64,000 bases of DNA, taken from the NCBI GenBank assembly GCA_030390025.1, contig CM059432.1:86182001-86246000 (forward strand), given 5' to 3'. Positions 1,251 through 59,308 of this stretch are shown here, piece by piece. This DNA is from Squalus acanthias (Eukaryota). Below the pieces are notes generated by a model. The model was not told the origin of the DNA. It saw only the letters and a program-made list of their open reading frames with translations, and did not search any database. The number at the start of each line of letters is the position of its first letter. Position 1 is the stretch's first letter. The translations under genes were made by a program, and so were the position numbers.

Positions 1251-1529
1251 ATTTTAGTGAAAACTATAAACGTTTTGCTGGCGTCTACTTTTTCCTTTAA
1301 AATTAACCTTGGAAATGGTTTAGAACATCAACTTGCATAGCAATAGTCGTTGAAGACATCACTGTGGAGACATTCTATCAGCTGCAACAATTGAGATAGC
1401 AGCAGTTAACAATGTCAAAATAATAGTTTTACCACAATAGCATAGTTCATTCAAACTACATCACTATCATAAGGGGAAAAAATCACTTATACTAGCATGG
1501 TATGGAATAAAGCATCCTAAAGAGATATT

Positions 1530-2259
1530 GGGCCGTATTTTCCGATCGGAGGCTTCCTGTGTGCGGAGGCCTCCGATCTGGAAAAAATCTCTGGACTTAC
1601 CTGAGGGCTCCCGAGGTCCGGACACTTCTGCTCCTGGGCCTCTCCAACTCGAAATGTGCAGGGCCCACGTATCCCAGAGGCGCATGCAGTTCGCAAGCAT
1701 CCCTGGGATCCCATGGGGAGCCAACAGGAGAAGGGAATCTCCCTTCATACACTTGACAGATAGACCTGTCAAATATATGAATGGAGATCACCCCAAAAAC
1801 ACTGTAAAACATTAAATACATTTTTTTTTAAATCACATTTTTAAAATGAGTTGAAATTACAATAAATTAAATATTTTAAACAAAAATTAAAATTTTTGAA
1901 AAAAATAATTAAAGTTTTTTACGGGGCTAAAATAAACTTACCTTTTTAAAAAAGTATTTTTAAATGATAAATGAGTGGAAAAATATATATTTTTTTTACT
2001 TTTTTCAAATCTTATGCTGGTAAAAGCATTAAGATTTCTAAGGGTTTTCTGCGGGCGGAGGTTCTCCAGAAAGCGGAACTATCCGCCCGCAGAGGCCCTT
2101 CTCCAGGGCAGGCGTCCGATCTGTCAAGAGCATTCTTGACAGATCGAAAATGCCGGTTTTCAGCGCATGTGCTTGGCATGCCTGAAACCGGCATTTCCGA
2201 TGTCCCTACAGGTGTGTACACAGCGCATACACACCCATAGGGATCGGAATATACGGCCC
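1530..2259. mobile_element. Non-autonomous TIR element (Harbinger-type MITE), multi-hairpin family, divergent member
   Basis: TIRs GGGCCGTATTTTCCGATC ... GATCGGAATATACGGCCC with flanks ATT/AAT. GC-rich hairpin arms surround an AT-rich core homologous to that of 4990-5733. Confidence 0.85.
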
Positions 2260-3149
2260 AATGATGTTGAGTAACCTGACCTTCCAGACTGGCCTTGACT
2301 GATTATATTATCAGACCAGGGCCGTCAGGTATCCTTGATTCTGTTAATTGTATGATGTGCATTTGAATACACCATTTGCCAACTAGTTTTAGCTTTGGAC
2401 CATAAAGATAGTCATTTTTGCCGTTTTTGTGTTTCTTAGCACACATAATATTTTGCCTTTATTTGAAAAGCTTGTCAGTGCAAAGAATAAGTTGCAGACT
2501 CCATAATTCCTAAGAATTCTTGTGAACAATCTGTTTGGAAGTTAATTCTGTTAGCAGTTCTGACTTTATGACTGCCTGCTTTTACTGTTTTGGACAATAT
2601 TGTTCAAGTATACCAGTGGAACTCCCATGACGTTGCACCTGAGAGTCAAGAGCAAGGCCACTTTTCAGTTTAAGCTGGGTTAGAAGGTAGGGAGATAAAT
2701 GAATGGAGAGGATTGGAGAGGAGAGGATTACCTCTTCTATCATTAGATGAAGTGCTCAGAGCACCTTATTTTTTAAAGCTGTGTCCAACAAGAAGTGACT
2801 TTCATCTTGTTCCTGAAGTAACCTTTTCATTGATTTTCCAGTTTCAGCACCTTGTAGATTTTTTCAGGTGTTCTATGTTTCTTTCAATAATCTTGTTTAA
2901 AAAAAACAATTTTTCCCCTCTTGTGTGGTTCCAAAGGTGGGTTCCTTATTTTTGCTTTGGGTGGCTCTGTCACATAATGTTATGCCATGTAACGTTATAC
3001 TCACAGTGGTATACCTTTGAAATGTTGAAACTACACACCATTTTGAATCTATTTCTTAATTTTATGAAATAAATTTTTTCAAAACTCTGACTAGGGTTGT
3101 CAATTTTCCTAAGCAGATGTACATTAAAATTGCTGAATCTTTCCATCAT

Positions 3150-4423: not shown

Positions 4424-5968
4424 AATGTGGGACAAAATTAATTGGCATTTGGAAAAGTATGGGCTAATAAATGAAAGTCAGCATGGATTTGTTAAAGTTA
4501 AATCGTGCTTGACTAACCTGATCGAGTTCTTTGATGTAGTAATGGAGAGGATTGATGAGCATAGTGCGGTTGATGTTGTGTATATGGACTTTCAAAAGGT
4601 GATTGACAAAGTACCACATAATAGACATATTAGCAAAATTAAAGCCCATGGGATTAAAGGGACAATGGCAGCTTGGACACAAAATTGGCTAAGGGACAAA
4701 AAGCAGAGAGTCGTGGTGAACGATTATTTTTCAGACTGGAGGGAAGTATACAGTGGTGTTCCCCATGGGTCGGTACTAGGACCACTGCTCTTTTTAATAT
4801 ATATTAATGACCTGAACTTGGGTATACAGGGTATAATTTCAAAATTTGCAGATGACACAAAACTCGGAAATGTAGTAAGCAATGAGGAGGATAGTAACAG
4901 ACTTCAAGAGGACATAGACAGACTGGTAAAATGGGCAGACACATGGCAGATGCAATTTAATGCAATTTGTAAAAATGAGGAGAGGCAATGGCCCAGAAAT
5001 TGATCTCGCTCTGTTCCCGCGGGGGTAAGCCTTCCCCGCGATGTCTCACCTCACTTATGCTTTTTCTGATCCAGCTCGCACGAACTTGATGTTCCAGACA
5101 TCAGCTGTGCTGGGCTTGCGTATCCCAGCGGCGTAGTGAATTCGTGCGAGCTGTGGGATCACGTGACTCAGTTAGAGCCAATGGCAGCACACCATCTTCC
5201 ATTCATAAGTCTCACAGCATGGCTGTGAGACTTATGAATCTTACACCCCCCCAAAATAACAGCTAAACCTCAATTAAATTTTAAAAAAAAACCATCACAT
5301 TAATAAAATAAGTATAGTTAATTAAATTAACCATTTTAAATAAAAAATTAAATTTTTGAAAAAATTTAAAATCTTTTAAAAAGTTATAAAAATAAACTTA
5401 CCTGTCTTTAAAGTCTATAAAAAAGATATACCTGTAAAAAAAAATTCAAAAAAATACTTAATTCACTACTTACCTTCTTAAAAGCGGGTCTTACTCCTCC
5501 TTTTTACATTTCCAAAATCTTCCCTACTTACCTGCGCGTCCAAAGCATGAAGTGCACAGCGTGCGCGCAGCCTGTAGTGCGCACGCGATGCACCCAGGCC
5601 CCGCCCCCTTTTCGGAAGAGCAATTGCCGGTTTTCAGCGCATGCGCAGGGCATGCAGAAAACCGGCAATTGGAGTGGGAATACGCGAGAGTATGCAGTGC
5701 GTACTCTCGCGTCCCGGGATCAATTTTCGGCCCAATATGAACTAAATGGTACAATTTTAAAGGGGGTGCAGGGTGGTATGAACACAAATCTTTGAAGATG
5801 GCAGGACAAGTTGAGAAGGCTGTCAAAAAAGCATAGGGGATCCTTTGCTTTATTAAAAGAGGAATAGAGTACTAAAGCAAGGGACTTATGCTAAATCTTT
5901 ATAAAACACTGGTTAGGTCTCAGCTGGAGTATTGTGTTCAATTCTGGGTACCACACTTTAGGAAAGAT
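4424..5968 (+). mobile_element. CR1 LINE ORF2 (RT) fragment, split by the MITE at 4990-5733
   Basis: ORF 4425..5003 has [28 protein letters not shown]. It resumes after 5733 and matches the CR1 at 63190-64000. Confidence 0.92.
4990..5733. mobile_element. Non-autonomous TIR element (Harbinger-type MITE), multi-hairpin family, copy 1
   Basis: 16-bp imperfect TIRs GGCCCAGAAATTGATC / GATCAATTTTCGGCCC and an AAT target duplication. Removing it restores the CR1 sequence. A near-identical copy lies at 42583-43326. Confidence 0.93.
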
Positions 5969-40791: not shown

Positions 40792-41539
40792 GGGGGGCGA
40801 AATTGGCTGTCATTGCGCCCCCTGGGGGCGCTAACGGGACGCAAATGGCTTTGTGACCGGGTGTGGCGCTGACATCGACTCCCGCCATATTCGGCAGGAG
40901 TTTTGCAGCAGCACTACGGCATTGCACTCCGATCTCCTTCGCCCAGAGATCGTGACGTCATCGCCGTGCACATCGCCCCGGTAGCGCCCCTGACCCAAAA
41001 TTGACTTCTACCTCCTGCAGCAGCGCCGGTCAAAAACATCGGCAGCTGCAGGAGGCGTGCATCAGATGGCCGGCCGTTTCGGGGGCGATGATTAAAGGCG
41101 AGGTGGCTGAGGTAAGTAAAAAAAAACTTACCTTTCTTGTTCCAGTTTTTTTCGCGGGTTCCTGCCCGCAATCGATCAGCCTGGCACTCTGATTGCGTGC
41201 CGGGCTGATTGCACGGGATTGCAGCTACCTTGGTGGTCCAGGTAGGTACTTTTCATATTGCAGAGCCTGCAGTGATGGCCCTTCCCTTTAAGGGAGGGAA
41301 GGAGCCTTTGAACGCGGCAGCGCTGCACGGCCCAGTGTCCAGCGCTGCTGAAATCTCCGCCCCGCCTGCTGCCGATTGTGCTCCAAGAAGGAAGTGGAGC
41401 GCTTGATTTAGCGCTCCACTTCCTTCCTGGAGTGCAAAACTGAATTTTTTTAAAGTTTAAAAACATTAGCACCTGGCGCTAATTTTCTCAACTTTTAAAA
41501 TTTATCGCCCCTGATGGGGCTATAATGAATTTCACCCCC
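40792..41539 (-). mobile_element. Non-autonomous Harbinger-type element (relative of 21205 and 36830, opposite orientation)
   Basis: TIRs GGGGGGCGAAATTG / GAATTTCACCCCC with flanks ATA/ACA. Removal restores the CR1 tail atcatagaatcttacagcacagaa. Confidence 0.85.
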
Positions 41540-41989: not shown

Positions 41990-43490
41990 GAGGAGGACAA
42001 AGAAGCACATTTAGATGACCGAGAATGAGGTATCAAACGAGGAGGGCACCTACCCACGGTAATCTTGCTACGCGTAGTCAAGGTGACCACTACCGTGAAC
42101 ATTTTTGAATGTTCTTTTCAGCGTGTATGGGGGGACATAAGCAACATGAGTCAGGCTGTAGTGCATAAAACAGGTGACTGCTGCCTTTTCGAGAGCAATT
42201 ACATCACATTCCTCATGAACACCAGGACGCAACAGAACTGAGCCCTAGGGTTCCTTTGAATGGCAGGATTCTGAAAAGTTCAGGGGGTAAGAGATAACAC
42301 CTAGTTAGCTCTTTATGCTCCTGCCACCAGGAGAGCCTTTATGTGAACTGCAAGGACTTCTACTTCTCTATAACTGTTCAGCTTGGATGTTACCACGTTC
42401 AATGGATAATAAGGCCAATGCCAGTTGATCAGGCCACATTCATGATGCCTTTATTTTGCACCATATATCATCTGCTGATACCCATCAAGTGTAGGGTTGG
42501 CCTCTGGATGACCAAGGATACACACTGCCGCCTTGGCTTATGACCCCTCTGCAATATCACTGCATCCAGCTGAAGACATAATGGCCCAGAAATTGATCTC
42601 GCTCTGTTCCCGCGGGGGTAAGCCTTCCCCGCGATGTCTCACCTCGCTTGTGCTTTTTCAGATCCAGCTCGCACGAACTTGATGTTCCAGACATCAGCTG
42701 TGCTGGGCTTGCGTATCCCAGCGGCGTAGTGAATTCGTGCGAGCTGTGGGATCATGTGACTCAGTTAGAGCCAATGGCAGCACACCATCTTCCATTCATA
42801 AGTTTCACAGACCTGCTGTGAAATCTATGAATCTTACACCCCCCCAAAATAACAGCTAAACCTCAATTAAATTTTTTTAAAAACCCATCACATTAATAAA
42901 ATAAGTATAGTTAATCAAATTAACCATTTTAAATAAAAAATTTAATTTTTGAAAAAATTTAAAATCTTTTAAAAAGTTATAAAAATAAACTTACCTGTCT
43001 TTAAAGTCTCTAAAAAAGATATACCTGTAAAAAAAAATTCAAAAAAATACTTAATTCACTACTTACCTTCGTAGAAGCGGGTCTTACTCCTCCTTTTTAC
43101 ATTTCCAAAATCTTCCCTACTTACCTGCGTGTCCAAAGCATGAAGTGCACAGCGTGCGCGCAGTCTGTAGCGCGCACGCGATGCACCGAGGACCCGCCCC
43201 CTTTTCCATTCACCAAGTGCCGGTTTTCAGCGCATGCGCAGGGCATGCAGAAAACCGGCAATTGGAGTGGGAATACGCGAGAGTACGCAGTGCGTACTCT
43301 CGCGTCGCGGGATCAATTTTCGGCCCATTGAGGCAAATGCCTCCACCAGATTCATCATAGAGTATACCACTGGCATGCTAAAGCAACAATCCAGGTGCCT
43401 TGACAGGCTAGGGGTGTCCTTTAGTATAATGCAGTCAAAGCTTCCTGGATCATTGTACTTTACTGTATTTTCAACAACATTGTGAATGAA
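41990..43490 (+). pseudogene. Harbinger (HARBI1-like, DDE_Tnp_4) transposase pseudogene of the outer element, split by the MITE at 42583-43326
   Basis: VKVTTTVNIF, GDISNMSQ, MAGF*KVQGV.D, VNCKDF, HDAFIL, DQGYTLPPWLMTPL, EANASTRFIIEYTTGMLKQQSRCLD. Confidence 0.85.
42583..43326. mobile_element. Multi-hairpin MITE, copy 2
   Basis: Same TIRs and length (744 bp) as 4990-5733 and nearly identical to it; flanks AAT/ATT. Confidence 0.93.
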
Positions 43491-44020
43491 AGAGGCAGTC
43501 ACTTGCAGCAGCTGCAGCAAAAACCTTCAGAAGAGCAGCTGGAGGACATGGCTGAGGAGCCGGAGGACCAGAGAAGTCTACAATCGATGTCTCTTTGGCA
43601 GCTGCATACCATGTGCTGGACCTTAATTCAGGACATTTTTCACAAACAAAGAACACTTCCTATTTTCAGTCCTCCTGCCATCTTCCATACCCCCTGCAAT
43701 AAATCCTGCAATAAATCACAATCACCTACATTTGCACACCTACCCTACTTATCCGCCAGTAAGACCGTGGCCTAGAAATTAGTTAGCCCCCAAAAATGGG
43801 CACGGGGATCACGATATGCCAGCAACCCGCGCCCGTTTGGAGGACTGCAGGCAGCACGTGAACTTCGCTGCTGAGTGGCTGAACACTCAGCAGGGGGCTA
43901 AAGTTCATGCAAGGCTAGCACCAATTAAAACTAGCCTGCACTACTTAAAGCTAGCCAGCACCTCTTAAAGGGGAAGTACATTCTGCCTGCAGCAGGGAAG
44001 ACAGTGGGAAAAATCTATTA

Positions 44021-45898
44021 ATGATGGCACAACAGTGCACCAAGGTTCTCCGATGCAGGACTTGAGGCCTTGGTGCAGGAGGTCAATTCAAGGAAAGAGG
44101 TCCACTTTCCACAGGGGGCAAGGAGACCCTCCAGGCAACAGATAAAAATGCAATGGGAGCAGATAGACAATGTGGTGAATGTCAGCAGTGTAGCCCCGAG
44201 GACGTGGACACAGTGCAGGAAGAAGTTTAATGACCTCATACGAGTGGTTAAGGTCAGTGAAATCATCTTCAAATGCCATATCCTACCATCTGCACCACTA
44301 GCCAGACACTGCTCAATGCACCACACCCCCATCATTCACCTACCAACAATCTCTACCAAACATGGCTCATACCTCACATTCATAGCTTCACCTCACCTTT
44401 ACACACTTACCACTGCTGCAAGCCTCACACCCACATCTCACAGCTTGCACACACTGCCAGCTATTTAACCATGACAGGCACATCACCCAAACACATTGGA
44501 CTACACTCACTGACACACTTCCCTTTCTCTTGTAGGAAAAGGTGGCACATAGCCGCCAGCAGGGCCTAACCTGTGGGGGACAGGTCGCCTGCATCACCTC
44601 ACCCCGTTGGAGGAGACGGTGCTAGCCATTCTTGGGAGGGGCATGGCGGAGACTGTGGCCAGAGGCGGGGCTGAAAGAGTACAAGATGCCGGTATCCTCA
44701 TATGTTATCTTCCTTCTCGTATCCCACTTCCCCCTCATCCCACAATCTCTTCTGATTTACAAGCTGCACATGGTGTAAGCATGCACCTCTTGCTTTCCTC
44801 CCCTCCCCTCACCACAACCCTACTCTTCGGCCCAAGAAATCCAACCTGCCTAGCCAGTGGTTGTACAAGAAGAGGGAGAGTAGAGTGATGAAGAAGAAGA
44901 AACACCCTCAATCGATCTGACACTTGCAGCCACCAGCTCAGATACTGGCACTCCGTGGAGTTTAGAGGGTAGCTTCAAGGCGGGATCCGCATGTGGTGAG
45001 TCACCGGGCACGCATGGGCTACAGCCAGGGCAGGGGGAAAAGGGTAGCGCAGGTGCCAGCTCCCTGGAATGCGAGGTCGCACACGAGTTCTGCTGCAGAG
45101 GACTCAAATGAGGACTTCGATGGGGCGGCCTACAGAAGAACGCTGATAGGTACGCACAATTAAATGCTTGCTGCATTGGCAGGCCTGCCAGAAAGCCTGA
45201 GTGCAATGTCAAGGAGCATGGAGGAGTCCAGCACCAACCTTGCACAGGGCTTTGCGCAGAGCTTGGAGACAATCCTTTCCAGCATGGAAGTGATGGCCAC
45301 CTCCATTAGCGCACTTGTGGACCCAGCCATCGTGCAGCGTCTGATGGCCGATGTCTCAGCTTCCATTGCAGCACAAGCACAAGCCACCCTGTGTCTGAGT
45401 GCTGCAATCGAAGCTCAAACTGAAGTCATGCAAGCTCAGACTGCTGCCATCGTGGCTAGGTTTACCAGTGTGGAAAGGGGCTTGCAGGGCGTCACAGCAT
45501 TCCAGCAATCTGTCCTCCAAAGGATGGCTAGGAATGCTGAGGCGCCATTCCAGGGGAGTGGCAGTGTCTCTGTGGAGGATGAACCAACTGTCCTCTCTCA
45601 GGAGGACAGCATTCGTCCTCCCATCACTGCCACTTCACCAGTGCCCTTGCTGCTACCTGTCAGCCAACCAGCCCAGACTGCTGCCACCCATGCTGAGATG
45701 GTACTGTCCGCAGCCAGGCATTCTAGGCCCAGAGCTGCTCGAGGTTGTCCTGAAAGGCCATCTGCAGTCTCCCCCACTGAAAGTCAGCAGCCTTCCACCA
45801 GCCATGTTGCAGCTACTGAGGTAGCAGTTCATAGGAGCACTAGGTCAGGCAAAGGCATACTGAAGACAGGCACTAAGGAAATGCACAAGGGTGACTAG
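44021..45898 (+). pseudogene. Harbinger Myb/SANT-like DNA-binding protein gene, 3 exons (~44021-44252, 44536-44691, ~44836-45898), with frameshifts and stops
   Basis: APRFSDAGLEALVQEV...WEQI...VNV....RTWTQCRKKFNDLIRVVK|gtcagt, acceptor cttgtag|GAAAAGGTGGCACAT, and a long low-complexity ORF 45164..45898. Confidence 0.85.
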
Positions 45899-46079
45899 TT
45901 GACTTTGTTAGGTTATATTGGATGGATTGATGGATAAAGTTGGATTGGAATGTTTCTTTTCTGGTGGCTTTTATTTCAGCATAGTGGCCAAGAGGACACT
46001 GTGACGGTCAGTAACAGAGGAAAGGTAAGGTGTGGGACTATTGTTGATTGGGGAATTGGAGTTGTGTTCACTCGTACCG

Positions 46080-47041
46080 CAGTTGGATGAGTGGATCACG
46101 GACAGCCCAGGTAGAAAGGGGCTGTCTGTGTTGCCGCTTCCACCTCTTCCGTTTCCTCCTCCTCCTCTTTCTCCTCCTGCCCCTCAGCTGGTCGCCATAT
46201 GCCTGGTGGCAAGGGCTGTGCCCTCATGATGCCGAGTTTGTGGAGCATGCAGCAGACCACCACGAATCTTGAGACGCGCTCTGGTGAGTACTGCAAGGCT
46301 CCTCCAGAGTGGTCCAGGCAGCGGAACCGTTGTTTAAGGACGCCAATGGTCTGCTCTATCAGATTCCATGCAGCAGCATGGCTCTCATTGTATGCATGCT
46401 GCCCACATGTGGTTGGGTTGCAGAGCAGAGTCGTGAGCCAGGTGGTCAACAGATAGCCCTTGTCGCCCAGTAGCCAGCCTCTGGTTTGTCTTGGTGGCTC
46501 AAAGATTTAGGGAACAGCGGAATGGCACAGAATAAAAGCATCATGACTGCTGCCATGATGTGTTGAGCATGGCCGCACACCAACTGCACATTCTTTGCAG
46601 TTGCGGTACATCTCAGCATTTAGTTACGGTGCCCTGCAAAGCTACGTGCATGCAGTCGATGGAACCTGCTATCCTGGCAAAGCCACGTGCACTTTCTGCT
46701 AGTTTCTCTCAGGTCAGAGAGAAGTAAATGAAGTCCCCTCCCCTGGCATAAAGAGCTCCTGTCCTTGCCCTGGTGTGAGGCTGCATGTCTGGTTGCAAGA
46801 AGAGGCAGAGTTATGTGAGCACCTCCTTTGTAAAGTGCAGACGCCTCACACTCTGCTCCTGGCTCAGGTTGAGGTAAGAGAATTGCTCCCGGTAGACCCT
46901 AGGTGGGTAAGGCCCCCTGCTGAGAGCCATTCTCCTCCTCCACCTCCTCCCTCTGTGAGCAGCTTGTCCTCTTCTTTGCTGCCTCTGCTCCATCTCCTGG
47001 TCATGCTGCAGGCCAAGGGGGGTGACAACTAGAGCACCCAT
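46080..47041 (-). pseudogene. Harbinger DDE transposase pseudogene (internal deletions)
   Basis: PYPPRVYREQFSYLNLSQEQSVRRLHF, IDCMHVAL, GSSHDAFIL, GWLLGDKGY, IEQTIGVLKQRFRCLD, CCMLH, followed by an acidic tail. Confidence 0.9.
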
Positions 47042-47689
47042 GACTGGAAGCAAGCGGTCTGACCAGAACCCTTGAAGTCAGAACCAAGGCCTTCTCCACT
47101 TGCAGCACCACTCCCTATCACCTCACCAACTTTAAACAACTCTAGAAAGCTGCAAACACTTCCACAAACTTACACAGAGCTAGTAGAATTTAATCAGCAA
47201 CTGACCTGAGAGTAGTTGATGATCCCTTTAAATATCGCTGGTAGGGGATCCTTGCAGCTGCTGAATGCCTGTTCAGCTGCGCAAGGTTAACACAGGGCAT
47301 TACTTCCAGCGTTGAGGACGAAAATGGCAGCACTGGCGTCAGATCAGCGTGCAACGTCACGATCTGCCTACTCTACATACTCTGGCGCATGCACCCAGCG
47401 CTGACGCTACCGCCCTCACCAAGATTTTTGACCCTTAATAGCACCGCTATGCACTTGAATTTCTAGGCCCATACCTCTTCACAGCACATTTCTTAATGGC
47501 ACAAATGAAACTGTAACTGCAGGTCTACAGTGCCAAAATCATTTATTGAACAAAAGGACAAGTGTATCTGAACCCAGCACCTACTAACACGGTTCTTTCC
47601 ATCCTTATCGGACTCTTCCCCCAAGTCACTTACTACTGCACTTCCAAATTCCCAACTGTCTAGGCTTTGGCCCTCCACACAACACAACA

Positions 47690-58170: not shown

Positions 58171-59308
58171 GGGCTAAAAATTCACCTGACCGCGATGCAT
58201 GATCAATCCGCGCCTGTTCAAAGTAATGCTGGCAACACGATAACTTCGTGCTGCCTGCTGATTAACATGATTGTGGTATTCAGCCCAGCACTGAATGCAC
58301 TGCTGACTGACTGAATGCTCAGCAGGGAGCCCAAGTTCATGCAAGGCTAGCACCAATTAAAGCTAGCCTGCACTTCTTAAAAGCAGTCTGCAACTCTGAA
58401 AGAGGAGGTGCATTCTGTCTGCAGCAGGTTATTCAACAGGCTGGCAAAGAGTGTTATAGCAGCAAAAAAAAAGTGATATCACAACAGGAGAGAGACCGTG
58501 GCTCCAAGGTTCTCCGATGCAGCACTGGAGGCCTGGGTGCAGGAGGTTAACATGAGGAGAGAGGTCCTGTTTCACAGGGGGCCACCCAGGCAAATGCGTT
58601 AAAGACATTGGGAGCAGATAGCTGTCATGGTGAATGCCAGCAATATAGTCCCGAAGACCTGGACGGAGTGTAGGAAGAAGTTTAATGACCTCACACGAGT
58701 GGTCAAGGTCAGTGAATTCATCTTCAAATGCCATATCTCACCATCTGCACCACTAGCCTCAGACACAGCTCAATGCACCACACCCAATCACTCACCTATC
58801 AACAATCTCTACCAAACATAGCTCATACCTCACATCCATAGCTTCACCTCACCCTCACATACTTACCACTGCTTCAAGCCTCACACACACATCTCACAGC
58901 TTGCACACATTGTCAGCTATTCAACCATGACAGGCACAACACTCAAACATATTGCACCACACTCACTGACACACTTCCCTTTCTCTTGCAGGACAAACTG
59001 GCTCACAACTGGCACCAGCAGGACCTAACCAGCCAGGGACAGGGGCACCTGCATCACCTGACCCCCTTAGTGTAGACGTTACTGGCCATTATTGGGAGGG
59101 CCATCATTGAGCCCGTGGCCAGTGGCAGGGCTGAAAGAATACAAGATGACAGTATCCTCATACATAATCCTCCTTCTCACATCCAACTTCCCCCTCATCC
59201 CACAATCTCTTCTGATTTACAAGCTACACACGGTGTAAGCATGTACCTCTTGCTTTCCCCCCTTCCCCTCACCACAAACTTACCCTTGTGCCTTTCTCTT
59301 TTCAAATA
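58171..59308 (+). mobile_element. Left half of another Harbinger of the 43769 family (TIR, Myb exons 1-2), cut by CR1
   Basis: GGGCTAAAAATT end, APRFSDAALEA...KTWTECRKKFNDLTRVVK|gtcagt, and introns alignable with 44253-44830. Confidence 0.88.

Follow-up and report, generated by a model that had tools for sequence, protein, structure and literature searches.

The terminal consensus of Harbinger transposons is GG(G/C)CC (Table 1 of PMC4423477). In zebrafish, the Myb-like protein of Harbinger3_DR binds the element ends, as cited in passages of PMC2836001 and PMC9179366, and in rice, internal sequence tunes the mobility of mPing, according to passages of PMC9921582. Excision of mPing with 5' overhangs from its target duplication has been proposed in the available part of PMC4561436. 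Maintenance of hairpins by template switching is described for rRNA genes and human variation in sections of PMC8794818 (see also PMC5453318), which presents it as a source of compensated stems. In a literature search of partial coverage, no paper was found that describes palindromes covarying within a MITE, a feature that we report here for a family from Squalus acanthias. The family may already have a name; it was compared with the literature alone.

We analysed a window, the whole 64,000-nucleotide stretch of contig CM059432.1 under study, in which a sequence-only reading had picked out three related elements. All three are present on the plus strand with TIRs of 16-18 bp: c1 at 1530-2259 (730 bp; flanks ATT/AAT), and c2 at 4990-5733 (AAT/AAT duplication) and c3 at 42583-43326 (flanks AAT/ATT), 744 bp each. 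Their similar size, related TIRs and homologous AT core were also borne out, c1 being 71-76% identical to c2 and c3 in the AT core. c2 and c3 are 95.3% identical, and c1 is a distant relative of both. c1 belongs to an older subfamily, S5, and its genome matches have 85-100% identity (40 matches scored). c2 belongs to the young subfamily S10a (~4,000 copies) and sits in a LINE-like repeat. c3 interrupts a decayed Harbinger transposase gene (42495-43410, plus strand), which matches the transposase of the coding element L216 in two stretches, at 54% across 26 aa and at 67% across 18 aa. Decayed Harbingers extend over 42050-47470; besides the remnant cut by c3 they include a minus-strand transposase remnant at 46186-46882, the single window match of a tblastn search with the partner transposase. 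A Myb-like remnant near 44020, recognized by eye, is repeated at 58286-59287. Another MITE of ~750 bp occupies 40793-41539. Its ends are of the GGGGG type, its donor-like motifs at 41111-41132 are inverted, and its 3' third folds strongly (z -7 to -10).

The window elements are copies of a high-copy, putatively non-coding PIF/Harbinger MITE lineage. Their TIRs start with GG(G/C)CC, as in other PIF/Harbinger elements, and their target duplication is 3 bp long, mostly AAT or ATT (AWT): 58 of 84 young copies have a perfect duplication, 44 of these AWT. Flank bias seen in 30 copies indicates an extended site preference. ISL2EU and Spy elements are associated with a 2-bp AT duplication or none, an assignment ruled out here by empty sites that contain one triplet. 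Insertion was recurrent at one LINE-like tail site (L002, L012, L016, L083 and L005), where the duplications differ (GTT/GTT, AAT/GTT, ATT/ATT and, in opposite orientation, TTT/AAT). Two short element patterns match the 3.7-Gb genome 17,490 and 16,355 times, and their reversed controls 0 times. We counted the young c2-type end 4,056 times, and copies that are 98-99% identical show recent activity.

After removal of truncated, nested and duplicated copies and of copies whose ends were unclear, there remained 138 full-length copies of 700-775 bp, a size range set by the selection filter. These form 18 groups, some with 1-3 members only, that are up to 47% apart and make a graded series from c1 to c2. 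Four internal palindromes, HB, HC, HE and HF, recur through all 18 groups. In c1 they lie at 1671-1709 (HB), 1744-1781 (HC, the pre-core hairpin), 2148-2196 (HE) and 2204-2242 (HF, subterminal), and in c2 at 5122-5159, 5202-5238, 5621-5671 and 5682-5712, respectively. The remaining stems are restricted to one end of the subfamily series, with stems gained and lost by lineage. The pre-core hairpin, the tgccgg hairpin and the last hairpin lie where the sequence-only reading had placed them and are homologous between copies; in the conserved tgccgg hairpin, c1 is 84% identical to c2 and c3. A post-core stem said to be kept in position did not hold up. It consists of two separate, non-homologous and lineage-specific hairpins, one in the c1 group (2048-2093; consensus alignment columns 584-631) and one in the c2 group (5559-5586; columns 624-651). 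Also lineage-specific are a second c1-group stem (2117-2147; columns 656-687) and a 13-bp inverted repeat of the c2 group (5072-5153; columns 82-175). Blocks matching older subfamilies were observed in the young copies L017, L029, L030, L013, L025 and L026; such mosaics suggest that copies may recombine with one another.

The stems covary among the 18 subfamily consensuses. Of 61 core pairs, 93% are Watson-Crick, a percentage inflated by picking the helices from the same sequences, and 15 show at least two pair types. When changes were followed along a minimum spanning tree, compensation was seen in 12 of 14 that are two-sided, compared with 0-3 of 4-9 when partners are slid. If every helix pair is included, compensation accounts for 20 of 155 changed pairs, compared with 4.7 expected. 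These events are counted between pairs of extant consensuses, and the direction of change was read solely from a tree. In HE and HF of 33 real copies, the paired share is 90.6% and 78 cells are two-sided, compared with 30 after shuffling and 5-17 after sliding; two pair-count measures on these copies were not significant, since 61 of 500 shuffles reached them. When the c1 and c2 consensuses are compared, 7 of 16 differing core pairs are compensated. The compensated stem differences originally claimed exist, but several stems are imperfect, the pre-core stem having two C.A mismatches in c1 and two mismatches in c3.

The cores of HE and HF are near-invariant across 45% divergence and in coding elements, and the variable positions between the cores change in pairs. 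Changes per column numbered 0.93 in core stems, 1.02 in the AT core and 2.04 in other GC-rich columns, although the measure is partly circular. Of the claim that pairing rather than sequence is maintained, one part is supported: symmetry outlasts letter changes beyond chance. The claim was overstated, however, since sequence is conserved at most stem positions and mismatches persist throughout whole subfamilies.

Both ends of the element fold beyond dinucleotide shuffles, on both strands and with RNA and DNA parameters (z -5 to -15). LINE, coding and GC-rich controls gave z values from +2 to -3.6, and the AT core of c2 (5245-5480) lacks a folding signal (z about -0.5). The ends of the other window MITE and of another Harbinger family fold too (z -0.6 to -9.7). 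Together with the palindromic internal repeats reported for Harbinger-N12A_XT in passages of PMC12676858, this weakens the notion that ordinary MITEs do without such structure.

A first look at the genome gave 63,886 Harbinger transposase candidates, and many of the 150 that were scored have open frames of 384-392 aa. Among 20 of these 150 loci that were widened, about half have ends homologous to the MITE. The eight coding elements examined measure 2.9-4.7 kb and have open frames of 384-391 aa. L216 pairs a DDE_Tnp_4 frame (PF13359, E 7e-43) with a convergent Myb/SANT frame (PF13873, E 4e-12). The MITE is 87-90% identical to its partners over the outer right 112 bp (for c2, to L211 and L213) and 88-95% identical over the outer left 40 bp; further in, identity is ~70% or there is no match. 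Over its outer 180 bp, c1 has 81% identity with L217. By this degree of sequence identity, the MITE ends derive from two-gene Harbingers. The right-hand palindromes HE and HF, both common to coding elements, sit inside the 112 bp whose sequence follows that of the corresponding coding lineage. The left 130-150 bp of the MITE are also common to coding elements, and HB and HC were not found in eight aligned coding-element left ends. L216 (7640-7730) and other coding elements carry, upstream of the Myb-like gene, a left end with its own short palindrome and GC boxes that the MITE is missing. A second, 4.1-kb Harbinger family (L219-L227) has GGGGG ends and varied 3-bp duplications.

The transposase is read from the MITE's right end, on the MITE minus strand. 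Counted from the right end, donor-like motifs of the MITE lie at 203 and 319-333 bp and match those of coding elements at 203-214 and 318-368 bp. In c1, a minus-strand 5' splice-donor-like motif at 1936-1942, 319 bp from the right end, is probably a remnant of the transposase 5' intron. In c2, a minus-strand motif at 5526-5532 lies 203 bp from the right end, where coding elements have one at 203-214, and the AT core holds minus-strand motifs at 5396 and 5468. The right part of the MITE may thus represent a transposase promoter, a short first exon and the start of an intron. Between subfamilies, the AT core changes at the slow pace of the stems, and its donor-like motif (1936-1942 in c1, 5396-5402 in c2) is retained in all or nearly all of them.

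The HC palindrome illustrates how a stem can change. In the young subfamily, a change at three positions of its right arm made this arm fully complementary to the left one, so that HC is perfect in c2, while c3 retains the older imperfect state. No partial state was found in any of 100 copies listed (21 new, 79 old), scored by eye with a pattern that allowed only two observed bases per site. With unrestricted scoring, 83 of 84 positionally sampled young copies likewise lack a partial state (40 new, 43 old), and 1 is deleted. A 4-base change in the loop equals the reverse complement of the old loop plus arm. Section 7 of PMC8794818 ranks loop inversion as the strongest template-switch footprint; HC has a rewritten loop with a one-base shift. 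A jump of three bases that skips all intermediates, and the rewriting of a loop as a reverse complement, are footprints of template switching.

The hairpin centre has been lost in 2 of 84 young copies, and a later T>A that breaks the perfected stem has spread to 13 of 84. In GC-rich parts, a local reverse complement explains 13 of 201 mutation clusters between pairs of consensuses, compared with 2 for the reversed and 1 for the complemented control; about 8 of the 13 are independent, or 4% of clusters. The AT core showed no excess of clusters matching a local reverse complement. G.A, T.C and C.A mismatches are fixed in subfamilies, and the G.A in HE lasts through several subfamilies before it is resolved.

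Once inserted, copies decay neutrally. Private non-CpG changes, counted over 106 resident copies, hit stems (146/12,148, 0.0120) as often as sequence outside them (310/27,125, 0.0114; P = 0.61). Stem changes in these copies are one-sided in 213 cases and two-sided in 2, both of which are compensating. Template switching within palindromes, which the sequence-only reading had set against its own interpretation, fits these observations, but it acts in source lineages and not in single copies.

We consider it probable, though far from settled, that the palindromes changed in matched pairs through template switching, which re-symmetrises source elements, while selection for mobility retains the cores because proteins bind them as end signals. 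Single strands would become exposed during repeated rounds of excision, gap repair and replication; these could fold back, and one arm would be copied onto the other. The observed stems did break, and their later repair took several bases at a step. The invariant cores would be read by the Myb-like protein and the transposase, or by host factors at the transposase promoter. HE and HF would be putative binding sites in inverted orientation, with template switching in source elements restoring symmetry at their free positions, and they are likely to be cis-acting end signals. Strict base pairing is unnecessary for spreading. The need for pairing appears weak because mismatches are fixed in subfamilies, the T>A variant has reached 13 of 84 copies and stems depend on lineage. 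Some observations argue against this account. The arms of different palindromes have no obvious common motif by eye, HB and HC were not found in the coding-element left ends aligned, the independent reverse-complement clusters make up only 4% of clusters, and most compensations are isolated pairs from which the mechanism is not readable. Because template switching is rare in resident copies (2 of 215), a higher rate in source lineages is assumed. Selection on pairing would likewise fit the pace of change in core stem columns, which is half that of other GC-rich columns.

A less likely but serious alternative is that the fold-back shape itself, a cruciform or a single-strand DNA hairpin, is selected because it aids excision, synapsis or gap repair of source elements. 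With the same limited likelihood, DNA shape would be what the Harbinger transposition complex recognizes, or what the repair step multiplying source elements recognizes, and an ordered hairpin array would be selected independently of sequence. Selection of this kind would account for the compensation of 12 of 14 two-sided changes (20 against 4.7 expected over all helices), for folding on both strands, for the gain of new stems in separate lineages and for the rarity of compensation in resident copies. It retains some probability because template switching is rare in resident copies and the excess seen in source lineages calls for a faster switch rate there or for selection. However, purine-purine and pyrimidine-pyrimidine mismatches have been fixed in subfamilies, the stem-breaking variant is carried by 13 of 84 young copies and HC is imperfect in 79 of the 100 copies listed.

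Alternatively, the segments could be under no selection, with palindromes that self-perpetuate through template switching and recombination between copies. We regard this as improbable. The template-switch footprints, the mosaic copies with blocks from other subfamilies and an AT core that is as slow as the stems (1.02 vs 0.93 changes per column) are all in its favour, but symmetrising by itself would leave the sequence free to change, whereas the cores of HE and HF are near-invariant across 45% divergence, also in coding elements.

Still less probable is a structured RNA, encoded by the element and carrying hairpins in a set order, which is one of the functions that the sequence-only reading had put forward. 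Covariation, strong folding and the minus-strand location of the donor-like motifs would suit an RNA. Internal mismatches comprise 6 G.T, 12 A.C and 18 others, and the surplus of A.C over G.T would correspond to G-U pairs on the minus strand (P = 0.24). However, half of these mismatches are neither G.T nor A.C, G-U is not favoured, the two strands fold alike, stems in resident copies are unconstrained, and HE and HF adjoin the TIR, likely upstream of the transposase start. Rfam gave no window match at the gathering score, and two loci gave two sub-threshold hits (E 0.6-0.8). Of 17 sequencing runs listed, 2 are recorded as RNA (shares 0.09-0.12), and these yielded 0 contigs for the right part of c2, counting contigs only. 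Two runs of guessed RNA type yielded 244 and 135 contigs for the same part, which extend into the flanks at the TIR; none of their displayed loose ends falls at a donor motif (9 ends lay outside the display). Apart from these runs, which weigh neither way, the evidence places the feature most likely at the DNA level and not in an RNA. The family also has motifs that we take to resemble NRF1, ETS, GC-box, CCAAT and E-box sites. Maintenance by the host as promoter or enhancer modules, which these motifs and the overlap of liver open chromatin with some Xenopus Harbinger MITE copies (passages of PMC12676858) might suggest, is the least probable explanation, given neutral decay family-wide and covariation between subfamilies that predates insertion.

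The target duplications of the family are often unequal. Mismatched duplications flank 26 of 84 young copies (31%; L231-L320) and 13 of 42 in an overlapping copy set, and they also occur at window positions 1527-2262 and 42580-43329. Private changes predict 1.3% mismatches and consensus distance 9.7% (P at most 5e-8). Of the 26 cases, 22 differ at the middle base and 11 are AAT/ATT swaps. Empty sites could be read from repeat paralogues in 7 of 26, and in 5 of these (L247, L280, L302, L303 and L304) one flank is the commonest target triplet and the other, on either side, is foreign. L268 and L297 are ambiguous, and L002 has one target-like and one foreign flank at its GTT site. These data fit excision of the element together with 5' overhangs that stem from the donor duplication. 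The carried-over overhangs would form a heteroduplex that is left unrepaired or is repaired at random. Perfecting of the TIR stem was considered as a cause; it suits 11 of 26 cases but fails for others, L280 and L302 among them. No paper on mismatched duplications at Harbinger insertions was found in a literature search of partial coverage. The staggered cleavage proposed for mPing concerns donor-site repair in yeast (in the available part of PMC4561436), whereas the foreign triplets here lie at new insertion sites, and they lend genome-scale support to Harbinger excision with overhangs derived from the duplication.

In passages of PMC2836001, PMC9921582 and PMC4423477, rice mPing and Tourist-like PIF/Harbinger MITEs resemble the present family in being short and non-coding, with GG(G/C)CC ends, a 3-bp duplication and an extended site preference. 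mPing also has a two-gene coding partner and internal sequence that possibly tunes mobility. It differs in its TAA/TTA duplication; the family here has AWT, a length of 720-770 bp and 18 graded subfamilies with covarying internal palindromes. These graded subfamilies, together with coding elements that have open frames, make it testable whether a MITE succeeds by the sequence, symmetry or shape of its internal DNA. Harbinger-N12A_XT of Xenopus tropicalis, likened here by description, is another Harbinger MITE from a vertebrate; its internal repeats are palindromic and its motifs include the NRF type. It measures 342 bp, and the available passages of PMC12676858 contain no covariation analysis. 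Zebrafish Harbinger3_DR and Harbinger3N_DR share the combination of a transposase with a Myb-like protein (passages of PMC2836001 and PMC9179366). End binding is reported there, while here it would follow from the conserved cores. As the family shows, a DNA transposon can acquire RNA-like covariation without sign of an RNA, a caution for covariation screens in repeats. Finally, the template-switch hairpins described in sections of PMC8794818 resemble ours in multi-base stem repair and in loop rewriting by reverse-complement copying; they are known from rRNA genes and human variation, whereas here the process would operate in the source lineages of a DNA transposon.
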